The notes under the pieces: generated by a model
What the model was told of the DNA's origin: nothing
Database searches by the model: none
Seen by the model: the letters and a program-made list of their open reading frames with translations, nothing else
Part shown: in pieces, positions 1 through 20,065 of the stretch
How the letters are laid out: each line of letters starts with the position of its first letter
How positions within the stretch are numbered: the first letter of the stretch is position 1
Translations under genes and position numbers: made by a program
Assembly: GCA_900544105.1 (NCBI GenBank)
Contig: UQUC01000026.1
Location: 1 to 24,000, forward strand
Length of the DNA: 24,000 nucleotides
Reading direction: 5' to 3'
DNA from: an uncultured Oscillibacter sp.
GTDB lineage: Bacteria; Bacillota; Clostridia; Oscillospirales; Oscillospiraceae

Positions 1-24
1 GGGGTATTCCAACTTTTGTGTGGG
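1..24. repeat. Left terminal inverted repeat (IR-L) of the putative ~12-kb element
   Basis: GGGGTATTCCAACTTTTGTGTGGG (1-24) matches the reverse complement of 11979-12002 (GGGTTATTCCAACTTTTGTGTGGG) at 23/24 positions by hand alignment. The true terminus could lie upstream of the window start. Confidence 0.7.
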
Positions 25-127
25 TTGGGCGGAAAAAATCAGGGAGCTGAGAGCTAAATCGTTTCGTGTGGGAACGGCGCAAAAAAGTTGTGCTGAGTTT
101 CTTTTCTCGTGTGCTACCAATTTAAGA

Positions 128-159
128 CCTCCTGTTATAGAATTTTCTGTAACAGGAGG
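128..159 (+). promoter_or_regulatory. Hairpin that sequesters the Shine-Dalgarno of the 168-482 ORF
   Basis: CCTCCTGTTA (128-137) is the exact reverse complement of TAACAGGAGG (150-159). The 3' arm contains the AGGAGG located 8 nt upstream of ATG 168. Confidence 0.35.
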
Positions 160-167
160 TGATTTTT

Positions 168-482
168 ATGAGCAGAAAAGACCCGTATTTTTCCTTCAAA
201 GACAGAGACAGCGTAGAGTACAAACCTCAGTATGGGACGGCGTACACGCTGCGTCAGGAGAAAATCCTGTCAGGCGAATTGCCCTTGGAGGACATCCGCC
301 CCAACGAACTGAGCCTGCTGAAGCAGAAGGCAAAACACCTCGGCGATATGGAGGGCTACGAGATAGCGACCCTGCGTTACGAGGAGATGCTGCATCCCCT
401 GGATGCCTACTACAATCACTACACCGCCGAGGAAGCAGCGGAAATCCTTCGGAAGCTGACGCCGCCGGGGTTTGAGTCGTAG
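168..482 (+). CDS. Hypothetical small protein (104 aa)
   Basis: ATG at 168 lies 8 nt after AGGAGG (154-159), so the track ORF 159-482 is trimmed to this start. Codon usage looks coding. I recognise no motif. Confidence 0.6.
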   Translation: MSRKDPYFSFKDRDSVEYKPQYGTAYTLRQEKILSGELPLEDIRPNELSLLKQKAKHLGDMEGYEIATLRYEEMLHPLDAYYNHYTAEEAAEILRKLTPPGFES

Positions 483-501
483 GCGGCGGAAGGCAACTCC
501 G

Positions 502-897
502 ATGGACACGAGCCGCAGAAACAATGTTCCTCCGTGCAAGGACGACGATGATATTTGGTACTGGGGCTACTCCATATTCGTGCCGCATATTCCCAACACG
601 CGGGCGTATCCCTATGTGTCCCGCATCATGGGTCCAGACCCCAAGTACCGCTTTGCCCGCAAGTTCCTGCAATACCAGTGGCCGCCAAAGACACCGAAAG
701 GCCGACGGTTCGATGTGGAGCTGCCGGGAGATGGCGTCTATGAGGTCGGCATCAAACGATGGAACGCGGACAAGACCCTGCTGCTGGAGCGGCAGGTATA
801 CTGGCTGTTGCTGCTGGATGGCAACGAGTACACCATCCCCAAGTGGCAGGTGCTGCCGCTGGTGGAGGCACTACGCAGTGGTACGCTCGGTGCCTGA
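502..897 (+). CDS. Hypothetical protein (131 aa)
   Basis: Track ORF 472-897 is trimmed to the first ATG (502), which is preceded by GGAAGG. It is followed directly by the terminator hairpin at 911-937. No recognisable motif. Confidence 0.55.
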   Translation: MDTSRRNNVPPCKDDDDIWYWGYSIFVPHIPNTRAYPYVSRIMGPDPKYRFARKFLQYQWPPKTPKGRRFDVELPGDGVYEVGIKRWNADKTLLLERQVYWLLLLDGNEYTIPKWQVLPLVEALRSGTLGA

Positions 898-910
898 AGA
901 ACAAAGAGAA

Positions 911-946
911 CCCCTGTGAGGTCAATCCTCACAGGGGCATCTTTTT
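911..946. terminator. Bidirectional intrinsic terminator hairpin (copy 1 of a duplicated hairpin)
   Basis: CCCCTGTGAGG-tcaat-CCTCACAGGGG forms an 11-bp stem, followed by CATCTTTTT on the + strand. The minus-strand side is T-rich (reverse complement of ACAAAGAGAA). It sits between the convergent ORFs 502-897 (+) and 978-1418 (-). Confidence 0.7.
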
Positions 947-977
947 AATGGCACAGTAGAGAAATGCTTATATAAAG

Positions 978-1418
978 TCACTCCTGTCCGCGCTCCTCCA
1001 TATACTTAAACACTTCTTTATCGGATTTAGCCCTTTTATACCAACCAATGCCTATCATAACAAAGCCAACAATCATTACTACAGTCCTAATTGTTGACGC
1101 TGACGAGAGGAAGCAAGAGGCAACAAGTCCTGTACCAGCACCCGTAAAGAAGTCTACGAGTGATTTCTCATACTTTATTTTTCCCAATACGCGCTCCTTG
1201 TCAATAGCTTTTACCATTTTGGAATCCCCCTTCAGTAATGTATCAAGCGATACATCAAATTGATTGCTCATTGCTATGAGAATCTGTAAATCCGGATAAC
1301 TCTTTTCGTTTTCCCAATTCGAAACCGTCTGTCTTGTAACATGGAATAACTCACCAAACTGTTCTTGCGTTAATTGCTGCTCATTACGAATTGCTGATAT
1401 TTGATTTCCTATGCTCAT
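978..1418 (-). CDS. XRE-family helix-turn-helix regulator with C-terminal transmembrane segments (146 aa)
   Basis: MSIGNQISAIRNEQQLTQEQFGELFHVTRQTVSNWENEKSYPDLQILIAMSNQFDVSLDTLL is a classic HTH_3 (Cro/CI-type) pattern. The C-terminal half has hydrophobic stretches (GLVASCFLSSA..., VVMIVGFVMIGIGWY). Start trimmed to ATG 1418, which has GGGAG upstream. The gene is visibly AT-rich compared with its neighbours. Confidence 0.8.
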   Translation of the reverse strand: MSIGNQISAIRNEQQLTQEQFGELFHVTRQTVSNWENEKSYPDLQILIAMSNQFDVSLDTLLKGDSKMVKAIDKERVLGKIKYEKSLVDFFTGAGTGLVASCFLSSASTIRTVVMIVGFVMIGIGWYKRAKSDKEVFKYMEERGQE

Positions 1419-1610
1419 GGTCAGCACCAACTCCCTCTCTGAAAAGAATTTACTACGACCTTGCTTCTTGTCTACTATTATGTAAGAAAAACAGCGCAAA
1501 GTAAAGCAATTTACTTTTTACATTGCGTTTTTCGTGTGGTTAAGTAGGTTTCGCAAATTCTTTTCGACAAACTCGAAGGCAATTCAACAACAGCGAATTA
1601 TAGAAAGATG

Positions 1611-1645
1611 CCCCTGTGAGGTCAATCCTCACAGGGGTATCTTTG
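1611..1645. terminator. Intrinsic terminator hairpin (copy 2, identical 27-bp core to 911-937)
   Basis: The same CCCCTGTGAGGTCAATCCTCACAGGGG core occurs exactly 700 bp downstream of copy 1. Here the palindrome extends to AAAGATGCCCC...GGGGTATCTTT. It lies just after the stop of the minus-strand ORF 1651-1878. Confidence 0.65.
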
Positions 1646-1650
1646 TTGTA

Positions 1651-1878
1651 TCATTTTGAATTGTATTCCCTCAGAATATTCTGAGCAATAAAGTCGATTT
1701 TGTCCTCCACGCTCATAGAGGCGTAGGACTCAGACACGGGAGGCGCTTCCATCCGCACGAACTCCTCACAGAACCGTACCGCCATCGCCTCAGCGGTGGT
1801 GCCAAGTTTGGCGCACAGCGCGGCCATCTGCTCGTACAGGGCGGTTTCCATGTCAATCCGTACATCTGCCATTGCCAT
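1651..1878 (-). CDS. Small ribbon-helix-helix-like protein (75 aa), translationally coupled to the transposase
   Basis: The ATG (1876-1878) directly abuts the transposase stop codon (1880-1882), with a single base (1879) between them. The N-terminus VRIDMETALYEQMAALCAKLGTTAEAMAVRFCEEFV fits a beta-strand/helix/helix (RHH, CopG/Arc-like) pattern by eye. Confidence 0.5.
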   Translation of the reverse strand: MAMADVRIDMETALYEQMAALCAKLGTTAEAMAVRFCEEFVRMEAPPVSESYASMSVEDKIDFIAQNILREYNSK

Positions 1879-1879
1879 G

Positions 1880-3502
1880 TTACTCTACCTCCTGCTCTTC
1901 TGCCGCACAGGACCCATCCTGCAACTGGCATTCACCGTTGTCATCGTCCTCACGGACATAGTTGCTGAAGGCCAGCAGCGAGTCTTCCTGCGGCGCAAAC
2001 TCCGGCTTCATAGAGCAGACCGTTTCCCAGTGTACCTTCGGCTTCGAGAACGAAAGGAGCGACATATATCCCATCGCGTGAGGCGGCTTGTCGCAAGAAG
2101 GCTCCTCGGCAACAGGGACGCTCTCCGTCTGCATCGTGTAGACAACGAGAGCCGCAACCTTGTCGCTGTAAAGAGCCCGCGCACGCAGCCGTTCAAAGCT
2201 GTACCCGTTCCCCATGCGGCTCATGTCCTCCACCATCCGGTTCAAGCCCTCCGTTACGGCATTGGTAAAGCGGCGGTTGGGTTCAAAGTAATTGAAGATT
2301 TCCTCGTGCCACTTCCTCGTGAGGGTGTTCTTGGCCGAACGAAGGTCGTCAAACAGCTCCGGCTCCACCTCGAACCGCTTCTTCCATGCCTCGATTTGAC
2401 GGCAGCCGGAGGGAGGGATAAGCTCCGCCCATTCCTTGCAGTATGCCTCCGCCGTCTTGCGGTCAGGGGCGGTGTAGATGCGGTCAAAGCGTTCCTTGAT
2501 AAGCCGCAGATGGTTGAACTCAGGGAAAGTCGCGCAGATATTTGCCATTGCGCTGATACGCCTCTCACTCTTGGCGAGATTCTTGGCGTTGAACTTGAAC
2601 AGATAGGTGTTCGTCTGGGCGAGGTTCCGCACCGCAATCATGCGCTTCTTTGCGCCGCCCTCCGGCTCCGCTTGGATGAGGGCGCCGATATAGGCCATGA
2701 TTTTGCTGCGGGCCTTGGCGATTTTCTCATAGACGGACTGGCAGACATGGAACTTGTCCACGACGATGGCGGCATTGGGCAAGCACTCCTGCACATAAGT
2801 ACGGTAGCCACAGGACATATCCATCGTTACGACCTCGATATTGGTGTCGTAGCCGACCATGCTCTCAATGGCTGCAATGACGGTATCCTTCTTGTTATCG
2901 GGACACATCTCCAGCAGAACACGGTTCTCAATGTCTGTAAAGATGGCCCGCATATTATGGACAATGTGCTTTTCATCAATGCCCAATACGCGGGGAGCGA
3001 TAACAGGGCCATGGGCTGACGCCAACTCTTTGGAATACTCGTCAAAAATTTTGCCGATGATAGTGTCGGAATAGCCGTATTTCAGGGCGACTGTACTCAG
3101 CGGCTTGGTAAACGCCTCGTGTCTGATTTCGTCATAAAGCCGCCTTGTCAAATGCCGGCTCTCCATAATGTCCGGCGATGGCGGGGAAAAGGACCTTCCG
3201 CATTCGCTACAGATGTACCGTTGCACCGTCAGGTCTATATCGACCTTCGTGCGTCCGCTGTTGACATCGTGAATGCGGCGCGGAGCCCCTGTTTGGCCGT
3301 GTGCGTGAACGGCGGTACTGCCGCAGAAACGGCATTTTCGGTTTCGGTAGTCCTCCACATGGCAGGAGAACAGTAAGTAAGGATGCCCTGCCTTGGGCCG
3401 ATAGCAGGCATCTTCAATTATGCCGCGCAAATTCAGGTGCGGAATGGGAATGACCTCCTCCATATCATCCGGAGTCAGTCGAATGTGATTCACAGTCTTC
3501 AT
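1880..3502 (-). CDS. ISL3-family DDE transposase (540 aa)
   Basis: It has an N-terminal zinc-finger-like CRFCGS...CSECG. The DDE region shows LGIDEKH, VTMDMSCGY and TNAVTEGLNRMVEDMSRMGNGY, an ISL3-typical TNAxxEGxN motif. Start trimmed to ATG 3502 (MKTVNH), which has GAGAGG upstream. It has a roughly 90-aa acidic C-terminal tail beyond ...LRARALYSD. Confidence 0.85.
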   Translation of the reverse strand: MKTVNHIRLTPDDMEEVIPIPHLNLRGIIEDACYRPKAGHPYLLFSCHVEDYRNRKCRFCGSTAVHAHGQTGAPRRIHDVNSGRTKVDIDLTVQRYICSECGRSFSPPSPDIMESRHLTRRLYDEIRHEAFTKPLSTVALKYGYSDTIIGKIFDEYSKELASAHGPVIAPRVLGIDEKHIVHNMRAIFTDIENRVLLEMCPDNKKDTVIAAIESMVGYDTNIEVVTMDMSCGYRTYVQECLPNAAIVVDKFHVCQSVYEKIAKARSKIMAYIGALIQAEPEGGAKKRMIAVRNLAQTNTYLFKFNAKNLAKSERRISAMANICATFPEFNHLRLIKERFDRIYTAPDRKTAEAYCKEWAELIPPSGCRQIEAWKKRFEVEPELFDDLRSAKNTLTRKWHEEIFNYFEPNRRFTNAVTEGLNRMVEDMSRMGNGYSFERLRARALYSDKVAALVVYTMQTESVPVAEEPSCDKPPHAMGYMSLLSFSKPKVHWETVCSMKPEFAPQEDSLLAFSNYVREDDDNGECQLQDGSCAAEEQEVE

Positions 3503-3603
3503 CGTGGTATACCTCTCAAATTCATCAAAAATAATGTGCCGGGGAAATGTATTCAAATAATTGATGAAGACTACGCTATTTACTTTTGGTATACCGTGAC
3601 CAT

Positions 3604-3632
3604 AGAATAGCACAAATGTTCTGTTCGCGCAA
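3604..3632 (-). promoter_or_regulatory. Candidate sigma-70-type promoter for the transposase
   Basis: The minus strand reads TTGCGC - 17 nt - (TGC)TATTCT, with an extended -10 TGn, about 95 nt upstream of ATG 3502. Confidence 0.45.
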
Positions 3633-3690
3633 GGGGGTTGCAAAAATTTTCTGTTTTCGGTAGATTTTGGAATAAAAATGATGAATTATG

Positions 3691-3718
3691 TTGCGAATTG
3701 AAAAATGTGTGCTATAAT
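3691..3718 (+). promoter_or_regulatory. Candidate sigma-70-type promoter for the hsd operon
   Basis: TTGCGA (3691-3696) - 16 nt - TGCTATAAT (extended -10; TATAAT at 3713-3718). It is divergent from the transposase promoter. Confidence 0.55.
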
Positions 3719-3749
3719 GAAAATGTCGAAGACTACAGAGAACTTCGAT

Positions 3750-3791
3750 GAGAAACGGGCCCGTTTCTCATCCTTTGCCTTGGCAAAGGAT
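3750..3791. promoter_or_regulatory. Two adjacent perfect palindromes in the hsdM leader (candidate operators or RNA hairpins)
   Basis: GAGAAACGGGCCCGTTTCTC (3750-3769) is a perfect 20-bp palindrome. It is directly followed by ATCCTTTGCC-tt-GGCAAAGGAT (3770-3791). Both lie between the predicted TSS (~3725) and the hsdM start (3853). Confidence 0.5.
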
Positions 3792-3852
3792 GATTCTCTT
3801 CTGTACGCAGGCATGGATGAGGAATTGGCCGTCATTGGAAAGGATGGAGCAC

Positions 3853-5634
3853 ATGACGACCAGTAACGAACGCATTGCATCTACCGGCAAGAATATACAG
3901 GAAAAAGCCAACTTAATTTGGAATGTGGCAAACACCCTCTTTGGCGCGTTTAAGCCCCATGAGTACGGACTCGTCATCCTGCCGATGGCGGTCATCAAGC
4001 GGTTCCACGACTGCCTGCTGCCGACCCATCAGGCAGTGCTGGACAAGTACAAGGAGGTGCAGCACCTCGCCGTGAAGGAGGGCTTCCTCTGCGCCGCCTC
4101 TGGCTACCAGTTCTATAACATCAGCCCATTTACCTTCGAAACGCTGAAAGCGGACCCCGAAAACATCAATGAGAATTTCCGCGCTTTCCTGAACGGCTTT
4201 TCTGACAATGTGCAGGACATTTTGGCGCGGATGAACTTCCACGCCCAAATCGACCGCATGGAGGAGGCCGGTCTGCTGTATCAGGTTATCGTGGACTTCT
4301 GCTCCGAGCAGGGCGATATGCGCCCCGAAAAAATCAGCGCAGTGGATATGGGCTATATCTTCGAGAACTTGGTGCAGCGGTTCTCCGAGTCCTACAACGA
4401 GGAGGCCGGAGCGCACTTCACCAGCCGCGATATTATCTATCTCATGTGCGACCTGCTGGTCAGCAATGCAAAATTTGATGGGGACGGCATCTCCAAGACG
4501 GTTTACGACATGACGATGGGCACCAGCCAGATGCTCACCTGCATGGAGGAACGGCTCAAGCAGTTGGACGCCGATGCGGATGTCACCTGCTTCGGGCAGG
4601 AGCTGAATCCCTTTACGTTTGGCATCGCCAAGGCGGATATGCTCATTCGCGGCGGCGACCCCGACAATATGCAGTTTGGCAACACGCTGGACGATGATAA
4701 ATTCAGCGGGTATCAGTTCGATTACGAAATTTCTAACCCGCCCTTCGGTATCGACTGGAAGCGAGAGGCCCCCAAGGTCGAGGCGGAGCATAAAAAGGGC
4801 GGCGCGGGGCGTTTTGGACCCGGTCTGCCCAGCAAGAGCGATGGACAGATGCTGTTCATGCTCAACGGACTTGCCAAGCTGAAGCCGGATGGCCGCATGG
4901 CTATCATCCAAAACGGCTCGTCCCTGTTCACCGGCGATGCCGGCTCCGGGCAGAGCGAGATTCGTCGCTATCTCATTGAAAACGACTGGCTGGACGCTAT
5001 TGTTCAGTTGCCCAACGACAGCTTTTATAATACCGGAATCGCCACTTATATTTGGATTATCACCAAGGACAAGCCAGAGGAGCATATCGGCAAGGTGCAG
5101 CTTATCGACGCCAGCAAGTGCTATGAGCCCCGCCGCAAATCCATCGGTAACAAGCGTGTGGACATCACCGATGTCTGCCGCGAGCTTATCGTCAAGGCCT
5201 ACGGCGCATACGCGGACCACACCTACCAGCGGGAGCTGGAGTCCGGCGCACATATCGTCTGCAAGAGCCGCGTGCTGGACAGCGTCAGCCTTGGCTACAA
5301 CAAAATCGTAGTAGAAACGCCGGAGATGGACGAGAACGGGCAGCCGGTACGCAAGCGTGGAAAGCCCGTGGCGGATACCTCCAAGCGGGACACGGAGAAT
5401 GTGCCGCTGGACGAGGACATGGACTCCTATCTGAGCCGTGAGGTACTGCCCTATAACCCCCATGCATGGATTGACAGGAGCAAGACCAAGGTGGGCTATG
5501 AAATCCCCTTCACCCGCACCTTCTATGAATACAAGCCCATTGAGCCTGCCGCAGAGATTGCCAAGCGCATCGAGGCCCATGAACAGTCGTTGATGCAGAA
5601 GCTCCACGACCTGTTCGGGAAGGATGGTGAGTGA
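3853..5634 (+). CDS. hsdM: Type I restriction-modification system, DNA methyltransferase subunit M (593 aa)
   Basis: The N-terminus LIWNVANTLFGAFKPHEYGLVILPMAVIKRF is HsdM-N-like. There is a SAM motif DMTMGTSQM and the catalytic NPPF in EISNPPFGIDWK. It is followed by hsdS. The start could be ATG 3844 or 3853; 3853 has better AAGGA spacing. Confidence 0.9.
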   Translation: MTTSNERIASTGKNIQEKANLIWNVANTLFGAFKPHEYGLVILPMAVIKRFHDCLLPTHQAVLDKYKEVQHLAVKEGFLCAASGYQFYNISPFTFETLKADPENINENFRAFLNGFSDNVQDILARMNFHAQIDRMEEAGLLYQVIVDFCSEQGDMRPEKISAVDMGYIFENLVQRFSESYNEEAGAHFTSRDIIYLMCDLLVSNAKFDGDGISKTVYDMTMGTSQMLTCMEERLKQLDADADVTCFGQELNPFTFGIAKADMLIRGGDPDNMQFGNTLDDDKFSGYQFDYEISNPPFGIDWKREAPKVEAEHKKGGAGRFGPGLPSKSDGQMLFMLNGLAKLKPDGRMAIIQNGSSLFTGDAGSGQSEIRRYLIENDWLDAIVQLPNDSFYNTGIATYIWIITKDKPEEHIGKVQLIDASKCYEPRRKSIGNKRVDITDVCRELIVKAYGAYADHTYQRELESGAHIVCKSRVLDSVSLGYNKIVVETPEMDENGQPVRKRGKPVADTSKRDTENVPLDEDMDSYLSREVLPYNPHAWIDRSKTKVGYEIPFTRTFYEYKPIEPAAEIAKRIEAHEQSLMQKLHDLFGKDGE

Positions 5635-5635
5635 T

Positions 5636-6943
5636 ATGACGCCTACTGTGGGTTATACGGAGATGAAGGACAGCGGTATCGAGTGGGTGGGCATGATTCC
5701 GAAAGATTGGGACATCAACATTCTCTTCCAACTTGTTTCTCAGGTAAAAAACAAAAACAAAGATTTGACAGAAACCAATTTATTGTCTTTGAGTTACGGG
5801 AAAATCAAAAGAAAAAACATCGACCATACAGATGGTTTGATTCCTGCTTCATTTGACAGTTACAACATTATTGATACCGGGGACATTGTTCTGCGACTCA
5901 CTGACCTTCAAAATGACCAAACGAGCCTTCGTGTTGGACGCTCAACCGAAAAGGGAATTATTACTTCTGCTTATATAACATTGCGCCCCGTCAATCTCAA
6001 AACATCAAAATTTCTTTACTATTTGCTTCATGCGTTTGACATCAGAAAAGGTTTTTATGGAATGGGGGCAGGCGTGCGGCAAGGACTTACCTATGATGAG
6101 GTCAAAGTTCTGAAACTACCGCTTCCATCCATATCAGAACAAACCGCCATCGCTACATATCTCGACACACAGTGTGCCAAAATTGACGAAATTATCGCCG
6201 AAGCCAAGGCCAGCATTGAGGATTACAAGCAGTGGAAGGCATCCATCATCTACGAAGCCGTCACCAAGGGGATTGACCCCAATGCAGAGATGAAGGATAG
6301 CGGGATTGAGTGGGTTGCCAAGATTCCTGCACGGTGGCATAAAGGAAGAGTCAGCCAAGTTGCAAATGCTTATAATGGGGACCGTAGCAGTAACTATCCA
6401 AGCGGGAGCGATATTGTTAGCTCCGGAATATCGTTCTTGACATCTAACAATTTAGGCCAGATTAAACTTAATACGGATATTCAAACAAACAAGTTTATTA
6501 CATCAGAGAAATACCATTCCCTTAGAGGGGCAAAACTGCAAAAAGACGATATTGTATTTTGCTTACGCGGGAGTGTCGGAAAATGCTCTATAAACAAAAC
6601 GCTAACAGAAGGAAGTATTGCTTCATCCCTCATCTTGATTAGGCCTGTTGGAATAAATCCTGATTACCTTAATTATGTACTTCAAAACAGTGCCATAACC
6701 GAAACAGCAGTTATTTCGGCGATTGGTATTGGTTCGCTCAACCTTTCGGCGGAGAATATCATGAGTTTTTCTATTCCACTTCCTTCATTGGATGAACAGA
6801 AACGTATTGCCCAGTATTTAGATGAAACCTGTAGTTACCTTGATGACATTGTGTTAGAAAAACAACTCTTAATTGCAGACCTCGAATCTTACAAAAAATC
6901 TCTAATCTACGAAGTCGTAACTGGGAAAAGGAGGGTGTGCTGA
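5636..6943 (+). CDS. hsdS: Type I R-M specificity subunit S with two target-recognition domains (435 aa)
   Basis: An internal duplicated conserved segment is present: EMKDSGIEWVGMIPKDW and EMKDSGIEWVAKIPARW. Conserved helical spacers are ...QWKASIIYEAVTKG... and ...YKKSLIYEVVTGKRRV. Two AT-rich variable blocks (TRDs) lie between the GC-richer conserved blocks. The start could be 5624 or 5636. Confidence 0.85.
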   Translation: MTPTVGYTEMKDSGIEWVGMIPKDWDINILFQLVSQVKNKNKDLTETNLLSLSYGKIKRKNIDHTDGLIPASFDSYNIIDTGDIVLRLTDLQNDQTSLRVGRSTEKGIITSAYITLRPVNLKTSKFLYYLLHAFDIRKGFYGMGAGVRQGLTYDEVKVLKLPLPSISEQTAIATYLDTQCAKIDEIIAEAKASIEDYKQWKASIIYEAVTKGIDPNAEMKDSGIEWVAKIPARWHKGRVSQVANAYNGDRSSNYPSGSDIVSSGISFLTSNNLGQIKLNTDIQTNKFITSEKYHSLRGAKLQKDDIVFCLRGSVGKCSINKTLTEGSIASSLILIRPVGINPDYLNYVLQNSAITETAVISAIGIGSLNLSAENIMSFSIPLPSLDEQKRIAQYLDETCSYLDDIVLEKQLLIADLESYKKSLIYEVVTGKRRVC

Positions 6944-7494
6944 TGGGTGTAAATATTGATGCAAAGGATAATGCGGCTACGGTCAAAGTTATACCCTACA
7001 AGTCTATATGCGTATTTGTCTTAATTGTTGACGGAGTTTTATTATTTGCCCCAGAAAATGTTGTTGCTGCGCTGGGGCTTAACCAAGTGCGTGAAACCAT
7101 CAAACCCTACTTAGGCATTCTGTTTCTCTGCGCGGCTGCGATTTTGCTTATTGATGTTGGCGGCGGCTGGATAAGGCGTAAAGTAACCGTTTCGCGGTAT
7201 CGTGGAAAAAACGCAAAACGAATACTGGATAGATTGAGTAAACGTGGCAAACAGGTTGTACGAAGGATGTATGAGTCAGAAAGCCATACGGCATACCTGT
7301 CAATCACGGATGCGACAGCAACTTATCTGCAGCGTTCGTCTATTATTGGGCAAACAACCGCAAGTAACAACGGCGAGTATTTTGACCGCTATTTACAGCC
7401 GTGGGTCGTTGAATATCTTGATAAGCACCCAGATTATCTGAGGGAAATGCCTGAGCCAGATGAAGGTGCATTTGAGTGTGAAGGAGAATTCTAA
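6943..7494 (+). CDS. 2-TM membrane protein, superinfection-exclusion (SieB-family)-like (183 aa)
   Basis: The ATG overlaps the hsdS stop (TGATG), with GGAGGG 8 nt upstream. There are two N-terminal TM helices (ICVFVLIVDGVLLFA; ILFLCAAAILLIDVGG). These are followed by a basic linker and a soluble C-terminal domain (...LSKRGKQVVRRMY...YLSITDATATYLQRSSIIG...YLQPWVVEYLDKHPDYL). This architecture matches my recollection of Pfam SieB-family proteins. The family call is recall-based, not searched. Confidence 0.5.
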   Translation: MGVNIDAKDNAATVKVIPYKSICVFVLIVDGVLLFAPENVVAALGLNQVRETIKPYLGILFLCAAAILLIDVGGGWIRRKVTVSRYRGKNAKRILDRLSKRGKQVVRRMYESESHTAYLSITDATATYLQRSSIIGQTTASNNGEYFDRYLQPWVVEYLDKHPDYLREMPEPDEGAFECEGEF

Positions 7495-7495
7495 A

Positions 7496-7948
7496 ATGCC
7501 AGATAGTACAAAGCCAAATGTGACCCATCTCGGATATATCCAATCAACTATTACAAGAATGGGGCAAAACGCATTTCAAGCAAAAGCGTGGTGCATCACC
7601 ATCATCACCGCACTCCTCGTTTTTTATTTGGAAAAGGCATCTAATGCCTCAAAATACGCAACTATCTATATTGCACTCGGAGTGGTTGCGCTGTTCTGCG
7701 CTCTTGATACATATTATCTTTACCTTGAGCGCGGCTACCGTAAGCTCTACAGAGTCGCAGCAAAACTGGAAGTAGAATCCGAGCCGCTTCCCGATTTTGA
7801 AATGCAAATCCCCCAAAATGCGCGTGGTATTGTGCAATATGGTAAGGCGTTTCTTTCGGTATCTACAGGCCTGTTCTATGGCGTAATCATGCTTTTGCTA
7901 ATCATCTTGTGGCTGTGTACTAATGCTGCAGATACACCTTCCGTGTAA
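7496..7948 (+). CDS. Small 3-TM membrane protein (150 aa), candidate membrane effector
   Basis: ATG 7496 lies 8 nt after GAAGGAG and 1 nt after the previous stop. Hydrophobic helices are AWCITIITALLVFYL, YATIYIALGVVALFCALDTYYLYL and LFYGVIMLLLIILWLC. No enzymatic motif is visible. Confidence 0.7.
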   Translation: MPDSTKPNVTHLGYIQSTITRMGQNAFQAKAWCITIITALLVFYLEKASNASKYATIYIALGVVALFCALDTYYLYLERGYRKLYRVAAKLEVESEPLPDFEMQIPQNARGIVQYGKAFLSVSTGLFYGVIMLLLIILWLCTNAADTPSV

Positions 7949-7966
7949 GAGAAAGGAGGATGCTTT

Positions 7967-8554
7967 ATGGCGTCTAAGGTTTTTGTGTCCTATAAGTTTG
8001 CGGACAATAATGTGGCGTATTTATACTCACCACTTTATTCCCCCTATTCATATACCAGCACAACCGCACGTTCATATGTGGATGATTTTAAGCGCCGAGC
8101 CGAAAATGAAGGGTGCATAGTTTATAAGGGTGAGAGGGCGGATGAGGATTTGTCTTATCTCAGTGATGATACGATTTGGCAAAAGCTGAGAGACCGGATT
8201 TATGACAGCACCGTTACCGTAGTATTTATTTCTCCTAATATGCGGGAAAAATACCGGAGTGAACGCGACCAATGGATTCCTTGGGAAATTGCTTTTTCCC
8301 TGCGTGAAACTACGAGGAACGACAGAACAAGTCACTCGAATGCGTTGATATTCGTTATTCTGCCGGACAGAAACAATAGTTATGACTACTATTCCACAAT
8401 GAGGCATTTCAATATTGTTGCCAGCAATATTCGGAATGGTTATGCCGAGGTTGCCTATTGGAGTAACTTTGTAACAGATATACAAGGGCATATTAGTAGA
8501 GCTCTTTTACGGAAGCAGATAGTCTCGCCGAATGAGGTAGTAAAGACAGTGTAA
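7967..8554 (+). CDS. TIR-like domain protein (DUF1863 / ThsB-like), 195 aa
   Basis: It opens with [12 protein letters not shown], the TIR beta-A pattern 'hFhSY'. It also has [10 protein letters not shown]...[15 protein letters not shown], matching the 'S.W(I/V).WEI' motif typical of MTH538/DUF1863 TIR-like proteins. AAGGAGG sits upstream of the ATG. Confidence 0.7.
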
Positions 8555-8560
8555 GGAGGT

Positions 8561-8580
8561 GCCCGATAATGCCCGATAAT
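8561..8580 (+). repeat. Perfect 10-bp tandem duplication (GCCCGATAAT x2) spanning the hsdR start codon
   Basis: Read directly: GCCCGATAAT GCCCGATAAT G. The hsdR ATG (8569-8571) is formed across the junction of the two copies. Confidence 0.9.
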
Positions 8581-11500
8581 GAAAAGCAATTTGAACAGGA
8601 TATTGAGACCTTTCTGATTTCCCCTGCCGGTGGCTGGCAGAAGGCCTCAGACGCCGGCTACCGTGCGCCGGAAAGCGCGGGTATGGCGCTGGATATCCGC
8701 ACCCTGACGACCTTCGTAAAAGCCACACAGCCCGTGGCGTGGCAGCGGCTGGAGAAGCAGAGCGACGGCAACTCTGAAATGAAATTCTACAAGGCGTTCG
8801 AAAATGCCGTGGAGAATGACGGCCTTATTTCTGTGCTGCGGCACGGCTTTAAGCACCGTGGCATCGACTTCCACGTCTGCTACTTCAAGCCGGAGTCCAC
8901 GCTGAACGATGTGTCGTTGCAGCACTATCAGCAGAATATCTGCCAGTGTATCCGCCAGTGGCACTACTCGGAAAGCTGCGGCAACAGTGTGGACATGATG
9001 CTGGCGGTCAACGGTATCCCTGTTATCGCCATCGAACTGAAGAACCAGCTTACGGGGCAGAACATCGACAACGGCAAAAACCAGTGGATGTTCTACCGCG
9101 ACCCCAAGGAGCCGGTCTTCCGCCTGAACCACCGCATTTTGGCGTTTTTCGCGGTGGACCTGTACGAAGCCGCCATGACTACAAAACTGGATGGTGCCAA
9201 GACCTTTTTCCTGCCCTTCAATCAGGGCAGCAACGGCCCCGGACAGAACGGAGGCGCAGGCAATCCGACCAACGCAGACGGCGATTATGTGACATCTTAT
9301 CTTTGGAAAGAGGTGCTTCAGAAGGATAGTCTGCTGGACATTTTGCAGAAGTTCATCAGCTTCCAAGTGAAGAAGGAGAAGATTCGGCTGAAGGACGGCT
9401 CCGAAAAGGAAATCCTCAAGAAGTCCGTTATTTTCCCGCGTTATCATCAGATGGATGTTGTCCGAAAGCTGGTGGGTGATGTGCGGCAGAACGGCTCCGG
9501 CCACAACTACCTCGTACAGCACAGTGCCGGCTCCGGCAAGTCCAACTCTATCGCTTGGACGGCCTACCGGCTGGCAAGTCTTCACGATGCGGACAACAAG
9601 CCCATTTTCAGCTCCGTGGTCATTGTGACAGACCGCACCGTGCTGGACGCCCAGCTTCAAGAAACGATTTCCGGCTTTGACCATACGCTCGGCTCCGTTG
9701 TGACCATCGGCGAGAAGATGAACTCCCGCGACCTGCGGGATGCGCTCAACGCCGGCAAGCGTATCATTGTGACCACGCTGCAGAAGTTCCCCGTTATCTA
9801 TGAGGAAGTGGACGATACAAAGGGTAAGGCGTTTGCGGTCATCGTGGACGAGGCCCACAGCAGCCAAACGGGGCACAGTGCCATGAAGCTGAAAATGGCA
9901 CTGGCGGATACCCATGACGCGCTGAAGGAATATGCCGATATCGAGGGCAAGGCGGAGGACGAGATGGAGGACACCGAGGACAGCCTTGTGCGGGAGCTTA
10001 TCACCCACGGCAAGCACAAGAATCTGAGTTTCTTTGCCTTCACCGCCACGCCGAAGAAAAAGACGCTGGAGATGTTCGGCGAGGAACACGCAGACGGCAC
10101 ATTCCATCCATTCCATATCTACTCCATGCGACAGGCCATAGAGGAGGGCTTTATCCTCAATGTGCTGGAGAACTACACCACCTATAAAACCTGCTTCCAA
10201 ATCGCCAAGAATACGCCGGACAACCCCGAAGTGCCTACCATCAAGGCAATCAAGACCATTCGGCGCTTCGAAGAACTGCATCCTCATAACTTGCAGCAGA
10301 AAGCGGCCATCATCGTAGAGACCTTCCGTGATGTGACAAAGCGCAAAATCGGTGGCAGGGGCAAAATGATGGTGGTCACGGCGTCCCGCTTGGCGGCGGT
10401 GCGTTACTACCATGAAATCAAAGCGTATTTAGATGCCAACCACTATGATGATGTAGAAATCCTTATCGCATTCTCCGGAAGCATCCGCGACCCCGAAGAG
10501 AAAAGCGGCCACGAATACACCGAAAGCGGCATGAACATGGACCGTGACGGTAATCACATCTCCGAGAGCCAAACCAAGCAGGTGTTCCACGACGAGGGCG
10601 ATGTGCTTATCGTAGCGGAAAAATATCAGACCGGCTTTGACGAGCCGCTGCTGCACACGATGATTGTGGATAAGAAACTGCGGGATGTGAAGGCCGTGCA
10701 GACTCTGAGCCGCCTGAACCGTACATACCTCGGCAAGGAGGACACCTATATCCTCGATTTCGTGAACACCAAGGAGGAAATCCTCAAGGCGTTCCAGCCG
10801 TATTATCAGGAGACAAGTCTGTCCGAGGAAATCAATATTGACCTTATCTACAAGGCGCAGAAGCAGCTCCGCGACTTCCGCGTGTATAATAACGACGATG
10901 TGGAAGCTGTTAGCAAGATTTATTTTTCGCCGGAAGCCAAGAAGGTGCAGACCACACAGGCAAAAATCTCCAATGCGCTGCTGCCCATCGCACGAGCCTA
11001 CAATCAGTTAAGCAAGGACGACAAATACCAGTTCAGGCGCACCATCCGTTCCTTTGTGAAGTGGTATAACTACATCTCCCAGATTGTGCGGATGTTTGAT
11101 AAGGCACTCCACAAGGAATATCTGTTCTGTTCCTATTTGGCACGTCTGCTGCCGGCAGAAACGGCTGCTCCGTGGGACTTGGAGAACCGCGTAAAGCTGG
11201 AGTATTACCGGCTGGAAAAGACCTTTGAGGGAGCCATAGAGTTGGAGGACAAGGATGTTCCGCTGGAACCTGAGCGGACAAAGAAGGCAGTCAATATGAA
11301 CACCAAGAAAGACCCGCTGGAAACGGTTATCGAGGCCATCAACGAGGTGTATAAGGGTTCCTTTACAGAAGCAGACCGCGTCCTCATTGGTACGCTGCGT
11401 GAAAAGTTGCTGGCAGACAAGAAACTCCGAAAAGCCGCAAAATCCGATGGACAACAGATTTTCGAGAAAAATGTGTTCCCCAAGGTGTTCAACGACACCG

Positions 11501-11646
11501 CGCAGGCATCCTATATCGAAAGCACGGAAACCTACACCAAACTCTTTGAAGATGGTGCCAAGTACCGCGCAATTATGACGGCACTGGCACAGGAACTATA
11601 CCGCGAAATGCGGAACGAGCGGGAGGATGACCATGCCAAGGGCTAA
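8569..11646 (+). CDS. hsdR: Type I restriction endonuclease subunit R (1025 aa)
   Basis: The N-terminal PD-(D/E)xK-like nuclease region is ...[20 protein letters not shown]. Helicase motif I is [14 protein letters not shown] and motif II is [12 protein letters not shown] (DEAH). The later motif [17 protein letters not shown] is present. AAGGAGG lies 9 nt upstream. Confidence 0.9.
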
Positions 11647-11800
11647 AAAAGATGGACAGCATCTGAACTGCTACATTGACCGCGTCCTCCGCGAAAGGTT
11701 GGAGGACTACGCCGAAGAGAAAGGACAGACGCTGACCATGGCTGTTGAGCGGCTTCTGACGAAAGCCCTCGATGCCGAAGAAAAGAAAGAGGACAACTAA
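11633..11800 (+). CDS. Small ribbon-helix-helix (CopG/Arc-like) protein, 55 aa (below the ORF-track cut-off)
   Basis: Hand translation gives [55 protein letters not shown]. It overlaps the hsdR 3' end by 14 nt. The strand-helix-helix pattern is LNCYID / [13 protein letters not shown] / [15 protein letters not shown] strong terminator follows. Confidence 0.55.
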
Positions 11801-11806
11801 AAAAAG

Positions 11807-11839
11807 AATCTGGCGTCCAAACAGGATGCCAGATTTTTT
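11807..11839 (+). terminator. Rho-independent terminator ending the hsd operon
   Basis: AATCTGGCGTCC-aaaca-GGATGCCAGATT forms a 12-bp stem with one G-U pair, followed by TTTTTT. Confidence 0.8.
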
Positions 11840-11866
11840 CGTACTTTTTGTTCACTCGGAGGAAAA

Positions 11867-12002
11867 CCCACACAAAAATTGGAAGAAGTCGCTCACCCGA
11901 AATTGGGGGTAAAAACTGAAATCCCACAGAAAAGTTGGAAGGAATCGCTCGGTCGAAATGAGGGTTGAAAAGAAAAATCCCACACAAAAGTTGGAATAAC
12001 CC
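11867..12002 (+). repeat. Three direct repeats with an exact 56-bp period; the last (truncated) copy is the right terminal inverted repeat (IR-R)
   Basis: Units start at 11867, 11923 and 11979 with CCCACA(C/G)AAAA(A/G)TTGGAA.... Units 1 and 2 are 42/56 identical by hand alignment. Unit 3 (11979-12002) is the inverted partner of 1-24. Confidence 0.8.
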
Positions 12003-12016
12003 GGAGCTGACCTCTA

Positions 12017-12044
12017 TTGACATAGATATTAATGAGGATATCAC
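12017..12044 (+). promoter_or_regulatory. Candidate promoter for the downstream six-gene operon
   Basis: A perfect TTGACA (12017-12022) - 16 nt - TATCAC (12039-12044) lies immediately outside IR-R. The -10 element is weak. Confidence 0.3.
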
Positions 12045-12114: not shown

Positions 12115-12366
12115 ATGTGGGAAATCTGGGAAGGGATCAATCTGGTTGGCTTCCCCAAGGGCGCACCGAATCCCCGCCGGGTGGAGGACCCGCTGAAATG
12201 GATCCTCTGGCGGCTGGGAAGGATCGGCCCCTATTTTCAGGCGGATCCTCAGCCGAAAAAGGCGCTGCTGGAGTCTGCAAGGAAATATCAGGGGCGGCTT
12301 GACGACTGGATGAACGAACAAAGGTGCAAACAAGAGCGGTTTTATAACGGGGAGGATCTCCAATGA
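12115..12366 (+). CDS. Hypothetical small protein (83 aa from first ATG), possibly the 3' remnant of a longer gene
   Basis: The track ORF 11965-12366 begins at a TTG inside the 56-bp repeats, which is implausible. The first in-frame ATG is 12115. The stop overlaps the next start (ATGA at 12363-12366). Confidence 0.4.
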   Translation: MWEIWEGINLVGFPKGAPNPRRVEDPLKWILWRLGRIGPYFQADPQPKKALLESARKYQGRLDDWMNEQRCKQERFYNGEDLQ

Positions 12367-14543
12367 AAATGGAGCAGGCATGCCGGTTCCGGACGGATGA
12401 AGCCGGATATATGGTCTGCGCCAGATCCCAGGGTCTGACGGCGGATAATGAAAACAACCTCGGCTATTTCAACAGTACCATGACGTCCTTGTTTGAAAAG
12501 GACGGATCCGGCCCGAGAATGGGTCAGTCTATCCTCAGCTACGCTGTCAGCGAGGAGAACGGCGGCAGGCGGCTGGAGGAGGACCCGTTTGTTGCGGAGC
12601 TTTTCCGGTATCTGGCATCTGCCGCCCCGGAGGAGCGCCGCCAGATGCTGCTGGATATGCAGTATATTTTGGGGGAGCTGGTGCCGCTGGAGTATGCGTC
12701 ACTGGAGATGATCGCCACCGCATATCACATGCGGAAGATGAACGATGGAAACCGGCCGGAAAATGACGTGTATGACCGCGTGGTGGGGAATCTGCTGCTT
12801 TGCGGCAGGGTTCCGTCGGCAAACCAGGAGACGGTGAACAAGCTCCTGATCTGGATGCTGAAAAGGCAGAACGCTGCGCTGCCCAAGCGGATTATGGAGC
12901 TGTCTGTGGACCGCTGCGTCAAACAGGTGCAGGCGGATGCGGCAGGCGGGCGGGAGCTCTGCGACTGTGTTTGCCGTCTTTTGCAGTACAGCAGAAGCGC
13001 TGAGCAGCTGGAGCTGCTGCAGAAAACGGTGAAAACCTTCGATGTGCGCTATGCCGGGCTTGTGCATGCCCTGCTGCGCGGCATCTTTTCGGACCGGGCA
13101 TGCAGCATTGACCCGCAGACGGCGTGCAGTCTGATCCCGGAGATGCTGCGCTCCGGCGATGAAATGCTGACCGGGGATTGCGTGGAGCTGACCACCTGCC
13201 TGGATGCAGGGCAGTGCCGGCAGCTGGCAGAGAGCATTCTGCGGCATGTGGGGCTCCGCCAGATGACGCTGATGGAGCAGAACGTTCTGGCCAATATCCT
13301 GGACGAGCTGAGCCGGTCCGGCGGTGTGCTGGGAAAAGAGAGCTGTGAGATCCTGGACCGCAATTCCTGCGTTTATAACGGCAGACTGCTGGATGCCTGC
13401 GTGGGCTATATGGTGCAGGTGCGGCTGCGGCAGGAGCTTCCCGTGGAGGAGCGCTGCGCGCTGCTGGCCGGGCTGGAACGGGAGTATCCGGCCCTGTATG
13501 ATGACGTTGCGGCTGCGCTGAAGAGCGGCGGCAGCATCCTGTGGAAGAAATATCAGATTCACAAGCATCTGCAGAATTGCAGATGCTATGAGGACATTGT
13601 GGCTGCGCGCCGGAGCTATCAGGGGGCGTCCCCCATGGACGATTTTGAACAGGAGTGTGTTGCTCTTTGGATGCAGCTCCTGCGCAGGGATGTCTATCAG
13701 GGGATGCCGCTGAAAAACCTGGTGCCGCAGATGGGACGCGCAGTCGATGCGCTGCCCAGAGGCGTATTCTCGCTGGAGGCCGCTCATGAGCTGCAGCGGC
13801 GGCAGCGGGCCTATTTCTGGAGCTGCATGACCTATCGCACAATGATGGACTATGTGTTGGACGGCGCGCCCAGCAGCAATGTGCAGGCGCTGCTTCAGAC
13901 CCGGGACAGCGGAGCGGATGGCAATAAGCTGCACTTTCTGGATGCCGTGTGGCAGCTGTACCGGGATCCGAGCCGGACTGAGCCGATGACAGAGCTGGTG
14001 CTGGACGGACACCTGCCTGCCAGGGACAGGGAGGAGATCTGCAATCAGCTGCTGCCGCTGGCGGCAAAGCTGAAAGCTGCCTCCAACCAGGCAATTTTCG
14101 CATGGGATCTGATGCTTCTGTCCTGCAGCCGGGTGGAAGCCGGACGGGTCGTTTATGACTGCGGCAGTCTGATTAAGAAAATTGAGGGGATTCCGGCGCT
14201 GAAAATGGGAGTTTCCGGCAGCCAGTCTCTCCAGCTGGAGCATTCCGTCATACTGCGGGACGAGAAGGTGCGCAGCGACCTGCGCAAGGCCGCCGGCCGC
14301 GGCGACAGTCTGCTCAGTGAGCAGCTGGAAAAGACGCTGAAGGCGTGGGGAAAGGCGCGCAGGCCCGACAATGGCCACGGGAAAAGACTGAGCTCTGATC
14401 CGCCGGCCGCGGAAAAGAAGGGGTTATTCTCTATTTTCGACCGCAGCGACAGAGGCGGGCGGACGGAGAAGTCGGACCGGGGCTTTATTTTTGACGACTA
14501 CGACGGCGACTCGGGAAAAAGAGGAAGGAATAGGAGAAGATGA
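12363..14543 (+). CDS. Large uncharacterised, probably all-alpha protein (726 aa) with a charged, low-complexity C-terminal tail
   Basis: GGGGAGG lies 9 nt upstream and G/C third-position bias is strong. The composition is rich in L/A/R/E/C. I see no Walker A or other enzymatic motif. The tail is ...DRSDRGGRTEKSDRGFIFDDYDGDSGKRGRNRRR. Confidence 0.75.
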   Translation: MKMEQACRFRTDEAGYMVCARSQGLTADNENNLGYFNSTMTSLFEKDGSGPRMGQSILSYAVSEENGGRRLEEDPFVAELFRYLASAAPEERRQMLLDMQYILGELVPLEYASLEMIATAYHMRKMNDGNRPENDVYDRVVGNLLLCGRVPSANQETVNKLLIWMLKRQNAALPKRIMELSVDRCVKQVQADAAGGRELCDCVCRLLQYSRSAEQLELLQKTVKTFDVRYAGLVHALLRGIFSDRACSIDPQTACSLIPEMLRSGDEMLTGDCVELTTCLDAGQCRQLAESILRHVGLRQMTLMEQNVLANILDELSRSGGVLGKESCEILDRNSCVYNGRLLDACVGYMVQVRLRQELPVEERCALLAGLEREYPALYDDVAAALKSGGSILWKKYQIHKHLQNCRCYEDIVAARRSYQGASPMDDFEQECVALWMQLLRRDVYQGMPLKNLVPQMGRAVDALPRGVFSLEAAHELQRRQRAYFWSCMTYRTMMDYVLDGAPSSNVQALLQTRDSGADGNKLHFLDAVWQLYRDPSRTEPMTELVLDGHLPARDREEICNQLLPLAAKLKAASNQAIFAWDLMLLSCSRVEAGRVVYDCGSLIKKIEGIPALKMGVSGSQSLQLEHSVILRDEKVRSDLRKAAGRGDSLLSEQLEKTLKAWGKARRPDNGHGKRLSSDPPAAEKKGLFSIFDRSDRGGRTEKSDRGFIFDDYDGDSGKRGRNRRR

Positions 14544-15589
14544 GCGACAGCGTGATGTATCCGGAAGCCGGCCGCTGGGTCAACAGCTACCTGGTGGGCG
14601 CCAACGCCTACAAAATTATGTCGACCCCCGAGGAGGCACAGCAGCTGCTGCTGGACGATAGCGAGGACTTTCTGCAAACAGGGACGGAGCGCCACTATAT
14701 TCAGGTGCGATGCCGGAACGAGAATAAACCGCTGTGGCTGGTGCCGTTCCGGGTCAAGCGGGAGGAGTTGCTGCGGGTATCCGACGTGCTGGAGCAGATT
14801 CAGATGGGACGAATCCTGCGGGAGGGCTTTTTCTGGCCGTTCGATCTGGTCCGGAGCGATGAAATGCAGGGATATGTGCTGCATCCCTTCAGCATGGATG
14901 CGTATCCCTCTGTCCGCCGGTTTTTGCCCAGCTCTGACACGCCCAGGTGGACCATTGCCGTCCATCTGTTCCGCAGGATCGGGCAGCTGCACCGTGAGGG
15001 CCTGACGCTGAACGGCTTTGGCAGGGATCAGGTGCGCGTGGAGTATGGGACAAACCAGGTGTATCTGGTTCCGGGTGAAACAATTTCTCGGGTTTCGCAG
15101 CTCGGCGCGGCCTTTCGCGGCGACTTTCTGTCTGTGCCGCAGGTGGTGGAGCAGCAGCTGGAGAAAAATGGCATCGTGCTGGACGGGTGCGTGCGCGACA
15201 TATTCTCGGCAGCGGTAATTGCCTTTTATCTGCTGTTCTATACCCATCCTTTCATCGGGGAGGAGTACAGCCACCTGATGCGGGAGCAATATCTGGAATA
15301 TTTTCAGAGTCACCCGGTGTTTCTGTTTGACGCCGGAGGGCACAATGGAACGGGACATCATCAATTCGGCGCGGAGATAACGGCCCAATGGTGGAGAGCG
15401 CAGCCGGAGCTGCGGCAGCTGTTTTCAGATTTCTTTGCGGCGCTGTGTGCAGGACAGATCGATGAAAATGCCCCGTGGAATGACACGGAGAACTGGATCC
15501 GCTGCCTTCTGGAGGATGCAGCCGTGAACGATAACGATAAGAGCCGCACAAGCTACGAGCTGGAGCTGGAAAAATTCCATCTGGTCTGA
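14540..15589 (+). CDS. Protein-kinase-fold protein with degenerate catalytic motifs (putative pseudokinase), 349 aa
   Basis: The ATGA overlap couples it to the previous gene. The C-lobe-like signature is DGCVRDIFSAAVIAFYLLFYTHPFIGEEY (compare 'D.wSlG..ly.ll.G..PF'). The catalytic-loop position reads LHREGLTLNGFGRDQVRV rather than H-R-D-x-K-x-x-N. The DFG position reads VYLVPGET. Confidence 0.6.
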   Translation: MSDSVMYPEAGRWVNSYLVGANAYKIMSTPEEAQQLLLDDSEDFLQTGTERHYIQVRCRNENKPLWLVPFRVKREELLRVSDVLEQIQMGRILREGFFWPFDLVRSDEMQGYVLHPFSMDAYPSVRRFLPSSDTPRWTIAVHLFRRIGQLHREGLTLNGFGRDQVRVEYGTNQVYLVPGETISRVSQLGAAFRGDFLSVPQVVEQQLEKNGIVLDGCVRDIFSAAVIAFYLLFYTHPFIGEEYSHLMREQYLEYFQSHPVFLFDAGGHNGTGHHQFGAEITAQWWRAQPELRQLFSDFFAALCAGQIDENAPWNDTENWIRCLLEDAAVNDNDKSRTSYELELEKFHLV

Positions 15590-15599
15590 GGGGTAAGGC

Positions 15600-16562: not shown

Positions 16563-16575
16563 GGGGAGGCACAGT

Positions 16576-17313: not shown

Positions 17314-17331
17314 CATAAGGAGGAGAGAGAT

Positions 17332-18477: not shown

Positions 18478-18481
18478 GGAC

Positions 18482-18518
18482 AAAAAGGACTCCTGCCAAG
18501 GCGGCAGGAGTCCTTTTT
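18482..18518 (+). terminator. Rho-independent (bidirectional) terminator ending the six-gene operon
   Basis: AAAAA-GGACTCCTGCC-aaggc-GGCAGGAGTCC-TTTTT forms an 11-bp GC-rich stem flanked by A- and T-runs. Confidence 0.85.
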
Positions 18519-18562
18519 GTGTCCCCTAAAAGTGCTTTGACCTTTGGGGCTTTTTGACAAGA

Positions 18563-18596
18563 AACAGGGGTCCCGCAGTTCTGCGGGACCCCTGTT
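18563..18596 (-). terminator. Terminator hairpin downstream of gdhA
   Basis: AACAGGGGTCCCGCAG-tt-CTGCGGGACCCCTGTT is a near-perfect 16-bp inverted repeat located about 30 nt after the gdhA stop. The minus-strand downstream tract is only moderately U-rich. Confidence 0.7.
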
Positions 18597-18628
18597 GGTT
18601 CTATTTGGATGATATCCTATCTTTCGGC

Positions 18629-19981: not shown

Positions 19982-20065
19982 AATAGTTGCCTCCTCAAAA
20001 ATTGTTCCAAGATTGTTCAAAATCGAATGGGTAGATGAAATTTGCTCATACCCCCATCCGTTCTG

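Follow-up and report, generated by a model that had tools for sequence, protein, structure and literature searches.

A probable ISL3-type cargo transposon with a Type I restriction–modification operon and an apparent fixed insertion register upstream of promoters

The beginning of contig UQUC01000026.1, from an uncultured Oscillibacter sp. (assembly GCA_900544105.1), raises the question of whether a whole Type I restriction–modification (R–M) operon can travel as the cargo of a single ISL3-type transposon and, if so, how such an element would choose its place in the host genome. We analysed the first 24,000 nucleotides of this contig (hereafter the window), for which an earlier note, made from the letters alone, had proposed an ISL3-type transposon of about 12 kb with Type I R–M cargo. 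Our results extend this proposal: window 2–12001 would be an intact ISL3 cargo transposon, that is, a 'transporter IS' (insertion sequence), which targets positions upstream of promoters, a reading to which we assign a probability of roughly 85%.

The boundaries of the element could be placed to the base. The inverted repeat noted at 1–24 and 11979–12002 proved real on checking (23 of 24 positions match). In another assembly of the same insertion (L033; loci are designated by L and a number), the left junction reads ...GGAGC CGGAGCTG and then GGGTATTCC. Since this left CGGAGCTG is identical to the one at 12002–12009, the element proper comprises positions 2–12001 (GGGTATTCC...GGAATAACC; 12,000 bp, 12 genes) and is flanked by an 8-bp target duplication. 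Its terminal inverted repeats (2–24 and 11979–12001) are imperfect, with 22 of 23 positions matching, and are kept across 60 distinct junctions. The earlier note had suggested looking for a duplication close to the right end, where one indeed exists, albeit one base off the sequence suggested (GGAGCTGA, 12003–12010). Similarly, the window does start at the repeat, as had been remarked, but its first base closes the left duplication and does not belong to the element. As the window is the start of a contig in a metagenome-assembled genome (MAG) of 2.17 Mb in 123 contigs, this break at the element boundary is an assembly product. Extension to the left, which the note had advised, was provided by L033, whose flank closes in CGGAGCTG, the repeat not being continued into a larger element. 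The change in base composition reported at 12003 is real, the GC content rising from ~0.48–0.53 to ~0.60 past 12002, but only modest.

The ends hold more sites than the terminal repeats. Against 0.05 occurrences expected by chance, the window contains four copies of the core TTCCAAYTTTTSTGTGGG, one of them in the left end and three in the right. The two ends are asymmetric: the right one has three sites, the outermost of which (11975–12001) is the terminal inverted repeat, and the left one has two (Table 1). The 140-nt right end is conserved among phage and metagenome copies. The two further internal right-end sites and the second left-end core, like the backbone genes and the promoter-upstream target described below, had been absent from the earlier note.

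The family is common throughout human-gut metagenomes: in a metagenome scan the terminal 20-mer matched 106 loci, almost all of them from the human gut. The segment is single-copy in its own genome. Exact 8-bp duplications were found at 11 distinct sites, several with both ends on one contig (this copy included, via L033), and the complete elements of the family measure 9.9–12 kb. The sister copy L020, from an Oscillospiraceae MAG, is 11,881 bp long, encodes a transposase 99% identical to that of the window and is flanked by ACGGCGCG. Its joined flanks are contiguous in three related species (91, 87 and 84%), where the locus is thus unoccupied. Left parts 99.9–100% identical to the window lie at other sites (L138, L141/L115), and the window's hsdM and hsdR recur with 98.7–98.8% DNA identity at a second site (L067/L063), the duplication there being CGAACTGC. 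The second copies anticipated in relatives accordingly exist at many sites, and an empty site was obtained for the sister copy, though not an exact one for the window copy. The copies show the ends, the 8-bp duplications, several sites for near-identical elements, and a fixed register and orientation; judged from such comparisons, the 12-kb element is recently mobile.

The register became apparent when the flanks were aligned. TTGAC at 16–20 nt and TATAAT at 39–44 nt outside the end are common to all 24 distinct right-end flanks. When flanks were scored against TTGACA-N16–18-TATAAT (12 positions) at an offset of 15 ± 1, at least 8 positions matched in 24 of 24 right-end flanks, at least 9 in 22 and at least 10 in 19, the background probabilities being 0.0034 for at least 9 and 0.0006 for at least 10; no left-end flank (0 of 36 distinct ones) reached a score of 9. 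The distance from the end to the −35 hexamer is 15 nt at 22 sites and 14 or 16 nt at the other two, and with spacers of 16 or 18 nt the register tracks the −35. At every one of the 24 sites it is the three-site right end that lies next to the promoter, and no left end is so placed. The promoters appear genuine: a same-strand open reading frame follows downstream in all 24 right-end flanks, and in L020 a full-length valS T-box leader (Rfam, 98.7 bits) comes immediately after the targeted promoter. Information content in the flanks peaks only at 16–20 and 39–44 and is nil in the duplicated 8 bp. These alignments indicate that the family inserts in a single orientation, with its right end 15 nt ahead of the −35 hexamer of sigma-70-type promoters.

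It could be objected that the element, although a true transposon, does not choose promoters at all, and that the promoter at its right end results from post-insertion selection or is borne by the element itself. Intergenic insertions that spare promoters would be expected to survive, and the intergenic preference of ISL3 in E. faecium has been ascribed to AT-rich tropism or lower fitness cost (PMC13216065). However, both hexamers are host DNA, because the 8-bp duplication sits between the element end and the −35, and the spacers and surrounding sequence share nothing among sites. Furthermore, selection would be unable to give a single-base register (22/24) together with a single orientation (24/24), and the sequence at which the window copy seems to have inserted is promoter-like and part of an open frame. 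We consider this explanation very improbable.

As regards the enzyme, domain and NCBIfam searches bear out that the ISL3 transposase is the only recombinase between the repeats. The protein matches the NCBIfam ISL3 equivalog NF033550 with 210.9 bits (cut-off 180) over residues 47–445 and has an extra acidic tail of ~95 amino acids (aa) beyond the model at its C-terminus; the ISLre2 and ISKra4 models gave no match at E ≤ 0.01, and besides ISL3 only a marginal IS256 match was seen. An 8-bp duplication and terminal repeats of such length are hallmarks of ISL3. With respect to the ISfinder/NCBI definition, the element has the DDE transposase type, terminal repeats within ~15–40 bp and the 8-bp duplication of the family; it departs from the simple IS of ~1.2–2.3 kb with a single transposase gene in being 12,000 bp long and cargo-bearing. 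The proposal of an ISL3-type transposon with Type I R–M cargo is thus supported by the duplication, by the other copies and by a score above the NCBIfam cut-off. A compact IS surrounding the transposase, of which the earlier note had likewise seen no convincing sign, was rejected: terminator hairpins alone flank the gene, and more than 20 related copies are always bounded by the distal ends.

One may still ask whether the transposase is a passenger, or decayed, the mover being orfA/orfB or an enzyme supplied in trans. Indeed, transposase-less derivatives of 1,680–1,735 bp, made up of left end, orfA, orfB, a helix–turn–helix (HTH) gene or its remnant, and right end, are frequent and flanked by clean duplications; eight large phage records (54–192 kb) contain elements that share these ends but lack the transposase gene, and encode no transposase relative; and in L057 the same repeat accompanies a transposase ~51% identical to that of the window. 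Against this, the 8-bp duplication and the repeat length fit the ISL3 hallmarks, and the transposase is full-length, scores above the equivalog cut-off and is 95–100% conserved across copies at different sites. The products of orfA (104 aa) and orfB (131 aa, beta-rich, with no catalytic fold) are unlike recombinases, and non-autonomous derivatives are normal for DDE transposons. A passenger role is accordingly highly unlikely in our view, and the ISL3 transposase would be the enzyme that moves the element.

Least credible is the idea that the landmark is an intrinsic-terminator hairpin, or another DNA structure often found just upstream of promoters: the L020 target, once reconstructed, forms a perfect terminator whose stem has 14 bp and whose loop contains the duplication (dG −30), and the GAAATGAC site is similar (z = −6.9), but a fold significantly better than that of shuffled sequences was seen at only two of the reconstructed sites, the others giving z values of −1.7 to +1.2, and the two hexamers are the only conserved columns, so that a hairpin was rejected as target landmark.

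Several observations nevertheless weigh against an intact, promoter-targeting ISL3 transposon. The window's own target has a perfect −35, but its −10 (TATCAC) is poor, the weakest of the set, and does not pass a strict promoter scanner. The joined flanks of this copy read as one open frame, and it may have inserted within a gene, at a sequence resembling a promoter. A search for its exact empty site found none, the MAG being without the left flank and the relatives without the right one, and L134, the sole alternative context for the site, shares homology only from window 12040 onward. Phage-borne copies show no target duplication. In L057, a window-type left repeat goes together with a transposase that has only ~51% identity with that of the window, and in view of this mixed pairing the specificity of the transposase for the ends can only be presumed. 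Both orfA and orfB are kept in every transposase-less copy and may have a role in transposition or targeting. Mobility, finally, is deduced here from sequence comparison.

Taking window 2–12001 to be a promoter-targeting ISL3 transposon, we propose the following mechanism. The 540-aa DDE transposase would bind a site of ~25 nt, present twice in the left end and three times in the right, and would cut the target with an 8-bp stagger. The unequal ends may lend the transposition complex polarity, and their asymmetry would determine the orientation. The complex would be positioned from the −35, the right end being joined 15 nt upstream and the duplicated 8 bp falling at about −50 to −43. The downstream host gene would keep its core promoter intact, and the right-end terminator would insulate the host promoter from transcription of the cargo. 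Behind the left end, the backbone runs orfA, orfB, optional HTH cassette, orfC and transposase, followed by the cargo slot. The odds are about even that the landmark is read via the promoter-bound RNA polymerase holoenzyme (sigma region 4/alpha C-terminal domain) and not by direct readout of the hexamers; we lean to the polymerase because the footprint spans both hexamers and the cut site and because near-consensus promoters are preferred. It is tempting to speculate, although we would rate this somewhat below an even chance, that this ISL3 clade independently evolved the trick of TnGBS and ISLre2, using the holoenzyme as a ruler from the −35/sigma region 4 and depositing large defence cargo at a safe position, ~50 nt ahead of the transcription starts of hosts and phages, with contact made via the clade-specific acidic tail or the invariably kept orfA/orfB pair.

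ISPpu12, to which the earlier note had likened the segment, is an element of ~3.4 kb. The comparison is apt as regards 24-bp repeats, 8-bp duplications and passenger genes; the insertions of ISPpu12 hit coding genes, among them nrfA and barA (PMC3735179). Both elements have an ISL3 DDE transposase, terminal repeats of ~24 bp, an 8-bp duplication and a single pair of ends that encloses the passenger genes. The window element differs in its length of 12 kb, its asymmetric multi-site ends, a three-gene backbone besides the transposase, its swappable defence cargo and its exact promoter-upstream target. In the latter respect it recalls the TnGBS integrative and conjugative elements, ISLre2 (p-MULT 3) and the ISKra4 group (p-MULT 4), for which oriented insertion 15–17 bp upstream of the sigma-A −35 has been described, the orientation being ascribed to dissymmetry of the two ends, in a survey that leaves ISL3 unmentioned (PMC3942029). 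The same survey links promoter targeting to a signature motif of the transposase located between domains N1 and N2. The 15-nt distance to the −35, the fixed orientation and the dissimilar ends are shared by the family of the window element, which is set apart by its ISL3 transposase and has no conjugation or replication module. To our knowledge, these Mutator-like lineages are the only ones in bacteria for which fixed-distance integration relative to promoters is on record, and a literature search returned no report of promoter-register targeting by ISL3. The novelty would thus lie in promoter targeting of the TnGBS type by an ISL3 cargo transposon, the kind of element itself being known.

A 2026 study of E. 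faecium, where ISL3 has recently expanded, reports that these elements markedly prefer intergenic positions close to the downstream gene and on the strand opposite to it; it gives neither a target motif nor a fixed register, and in the case described the native −35 was swapped for an element-borne one (PMC13216065). By contrast, the window family leaves both hexamers intact 15 nt away and bears cargo. The ends of Tn7 and Mu likewise contain several unequally arranged transposase-binding repeats, and both elements insert orientation-specifically. This likeness is architectural only, the window element being without TnsABC or MuAB homologues and its duplication being 8 bp, not 5 bp; a Tn7-like reading of the TGTGGG motif was rejected, as the motif has the wrong orientation and Tns genes are absent. 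A second, unrelated family with a 15-nt register would constitute an independent system for asking whether DNA hexamers or the polymerase are recognised, and a promoter register may explain the intergenic preference of Enterococcus ISL3 elements. Such elements may also be a common route by which gut Firmicutes and phages gain and exchange whole Type I R–M systems and other defence genes with host genes unbroken, and a transposase able to deliver a 12-kb cargo to a predictable site where the promoter is spared could become a genetic tool.

Table 1. Features of the window element and of its target (positions in the window)
Feature	Position	Strand	Remarks
Last base of left target duplication copy CGGAGCTG	1		Rest beyond contig start; same left junction in L033
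Left terminal inverted repeat, predicted terminal transposase site L1, GGGTATTCCAACTTTTGTGTGGG	2–24	+	Kept at 36 distinct left junctions
Second, weaker site core in left end, TTTCGTGTGGG	62–72	+	48 nt from L1; present in all aligned left ends
15-bp-stem hairpin over orfA ribosome-binding site GGAGG	127–160	+	Same hairpin in L006; conserved in distant relatives
orfA, conserved backbone gene	168–482	+	104 aa; exact protein in 1347 collection blocks
orfB, beta-rich conserved backbone gene	502–897	+	131 aa; 37% identical in distant relative L128
Optional cassette, low GC	953–1650	−	698 bp; XRE-type HTH gene with membrane tail (978–1499) and second terminator hairpin copy
orfC, directly downstream of transposase	1651–1878	−	75 aa; 83–100% conserved in 28 loci
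ISL3-family DDE transposase	1880–3502	−	540 aa; Pfam DDE_Tnp_ISL3 (PF01610) 9.2e-37, full model
hsdM, Type I R–M methyltransferase	3748–5634	+	N6_Mtase 6.4e-52, HsdM_N 1.7e-19
hsdS, specificity subunit	5624–6943	+	Methylase_S 1.9e-18
SieB-like gene	6937–7494	+	Pfam SieB 2.1e-20
PDC-M50A candidate defence gene	7460–7948	+	PADLOC 1.9e-31
ThsB-like TIR gene	7967–8554	+	PADLOC ThsB 1.2e-52
hsdR, Type I restriction subunit	8569–11646	+	SWI2_SNF2, ResIII, HSDR_N, T1R_D3; PADLOC REase_I 1.7e-40
Strong intrinsic terminator inside right end, 3′ of hsdR	11803–11839	+	16-pair stem and T run
Right end, three 25-nt sites in direct order	11863–12001	−	11863–11887, 11919–11943, 11975–12001; spacing 56 bp
Right target duplication copy CGGAGCTG	12002–12009		Matches left flank of L033
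Host target landmark, reading away from element	12017–12044	+	−35 TTGACA (12017–12022), 16-nt spacer, −10-like TATCAC (12039–12044)

The cargo comprises a complete predicted Type I R–M set, hsdM, hsdS and hsdR all being matched in Pfam/PADLOC, with a trio of SieB-like, PDC-M50A and ThsB-like TIR genes (6937–8554) embedded in the operon. The trio does not amount to a Thoeris system, since ThsA is absent and the neighbours of the ThsB-like gene are the SieB-like and PDC-M50A genes. In L067, window 6318–8552, i.e. the 3′ half of hsdS plus the embedded trio, is replaced by 1,317 nt, and the HsdS protein, 75% identical to that of the window, differs in its 3′ half; it would appear that a defence module was swapped within the R–M operon along with a specificity domain. 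Other copies carry other cargo. The Type I system of L020 is EcoR124-type, and its HsdR and HsdM show 23 and 25% identity, respectively, with their window counterparts, the transposases being 99% identical; EcoR124-type-like systems are also present in L024, L044, L068 and L093, and a third Type I system in L006. The cargo consists of an ABC transporter and a histidine kinase in L102 and of unknown genes in L027. Comparison of the copies thus shows that cargo is exchanged between them.

The backbone genes orfA and orfB accompany every left end (64 and 60 loci, respectively), and the transposase was detected in 22 loci. Neither orfA nor orfC matched any family in Pfam and NCBIfam searches, orfC being ribbon–helix–helix-like by eye only. 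Homologues of orfB are confined to the present element family, and its AF2 model (pLDDT 76) had no fold match in the PDB (E > 0.25). The hairpin over the orfA ribosome-binding site may possibly exert translational or operator control over the backbone genes. Two copies of a 34-nt terminator hairpin (911–944 and 1611–1644) flank the HTH gene. L020, L041 and L054 lack the cassette at 953–1650, their match to the window stopping at ~904–952 and resuming at 1651. It is missing from L006 as well, and on this comparison looks like an insertion at the hairpin. The number of right-end sites also varies: L136, L139 and L143, which represent one insertion site, carry two, three and one of them, respectively, presumably through recombination between the 56-bp repeats.

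Relatives of the transposase were sought among 400 genomes of the order, of which its own genome alone matched, and in viral contigs, none of which matched. Within the same genus, one relative shares the backbone and has a transposase with 54% identity, its left repeat, GGGCTATCCCAAGTTTGATGTGTG, being related; a degenerate scan for the distant-clade repeat yielded chance matches only. In L057, a window-type backbone (orfA 82% identical) stands beside a transposase 99% identical to that of L006, the left repeat of which is different; either module recombination between clades or loose end specificity may have led to this combination. L021 (CAKUYO010000083.1), a 5.2-kb contig with a transposase 92% identical, is binned in a Bacteroidales MAG, probably by a binning error rather than a host jump, because every other named host is a Firmicute. 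In L049 (5346–8225), a second element has its right end turned towards the 3′ end of an hsdR copy (99.6% identical to that of the window), with a promoter-like TTGCTT-16-TATACT between the two; this is an apparent nested or head-to-tail insertion.

The IMG/VR records behind L009–L016 are related large phages with transposase-less elements of 0.28–1.3 kb at one locus; these adjoin the promoter of a gene that is DUF1273-like by eye, and their cargo is, again by eye, toxin–antitoxin-like. Because eight large phage records carried the repeat without a transposase, the repeat was also considered as a phage iteron or partition site. This was rejected, as inverted partners bound the 0.28–1.3-kb phage elements and duplications are seen elsewhere.

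Beyond the right flank, six co-directional genes (12363–20038) encode proteins of 726, 349, 320, 245, 381 and 494 aa. None of the six matched Pfam, NCBIfam or PADLOC, and the operon had no DNA match in 40 relatives. In L134, the same operon stands under a different upstream context, homology beginning at window 12040. Its 726-aa protein occurs in 1231 collection blocks.

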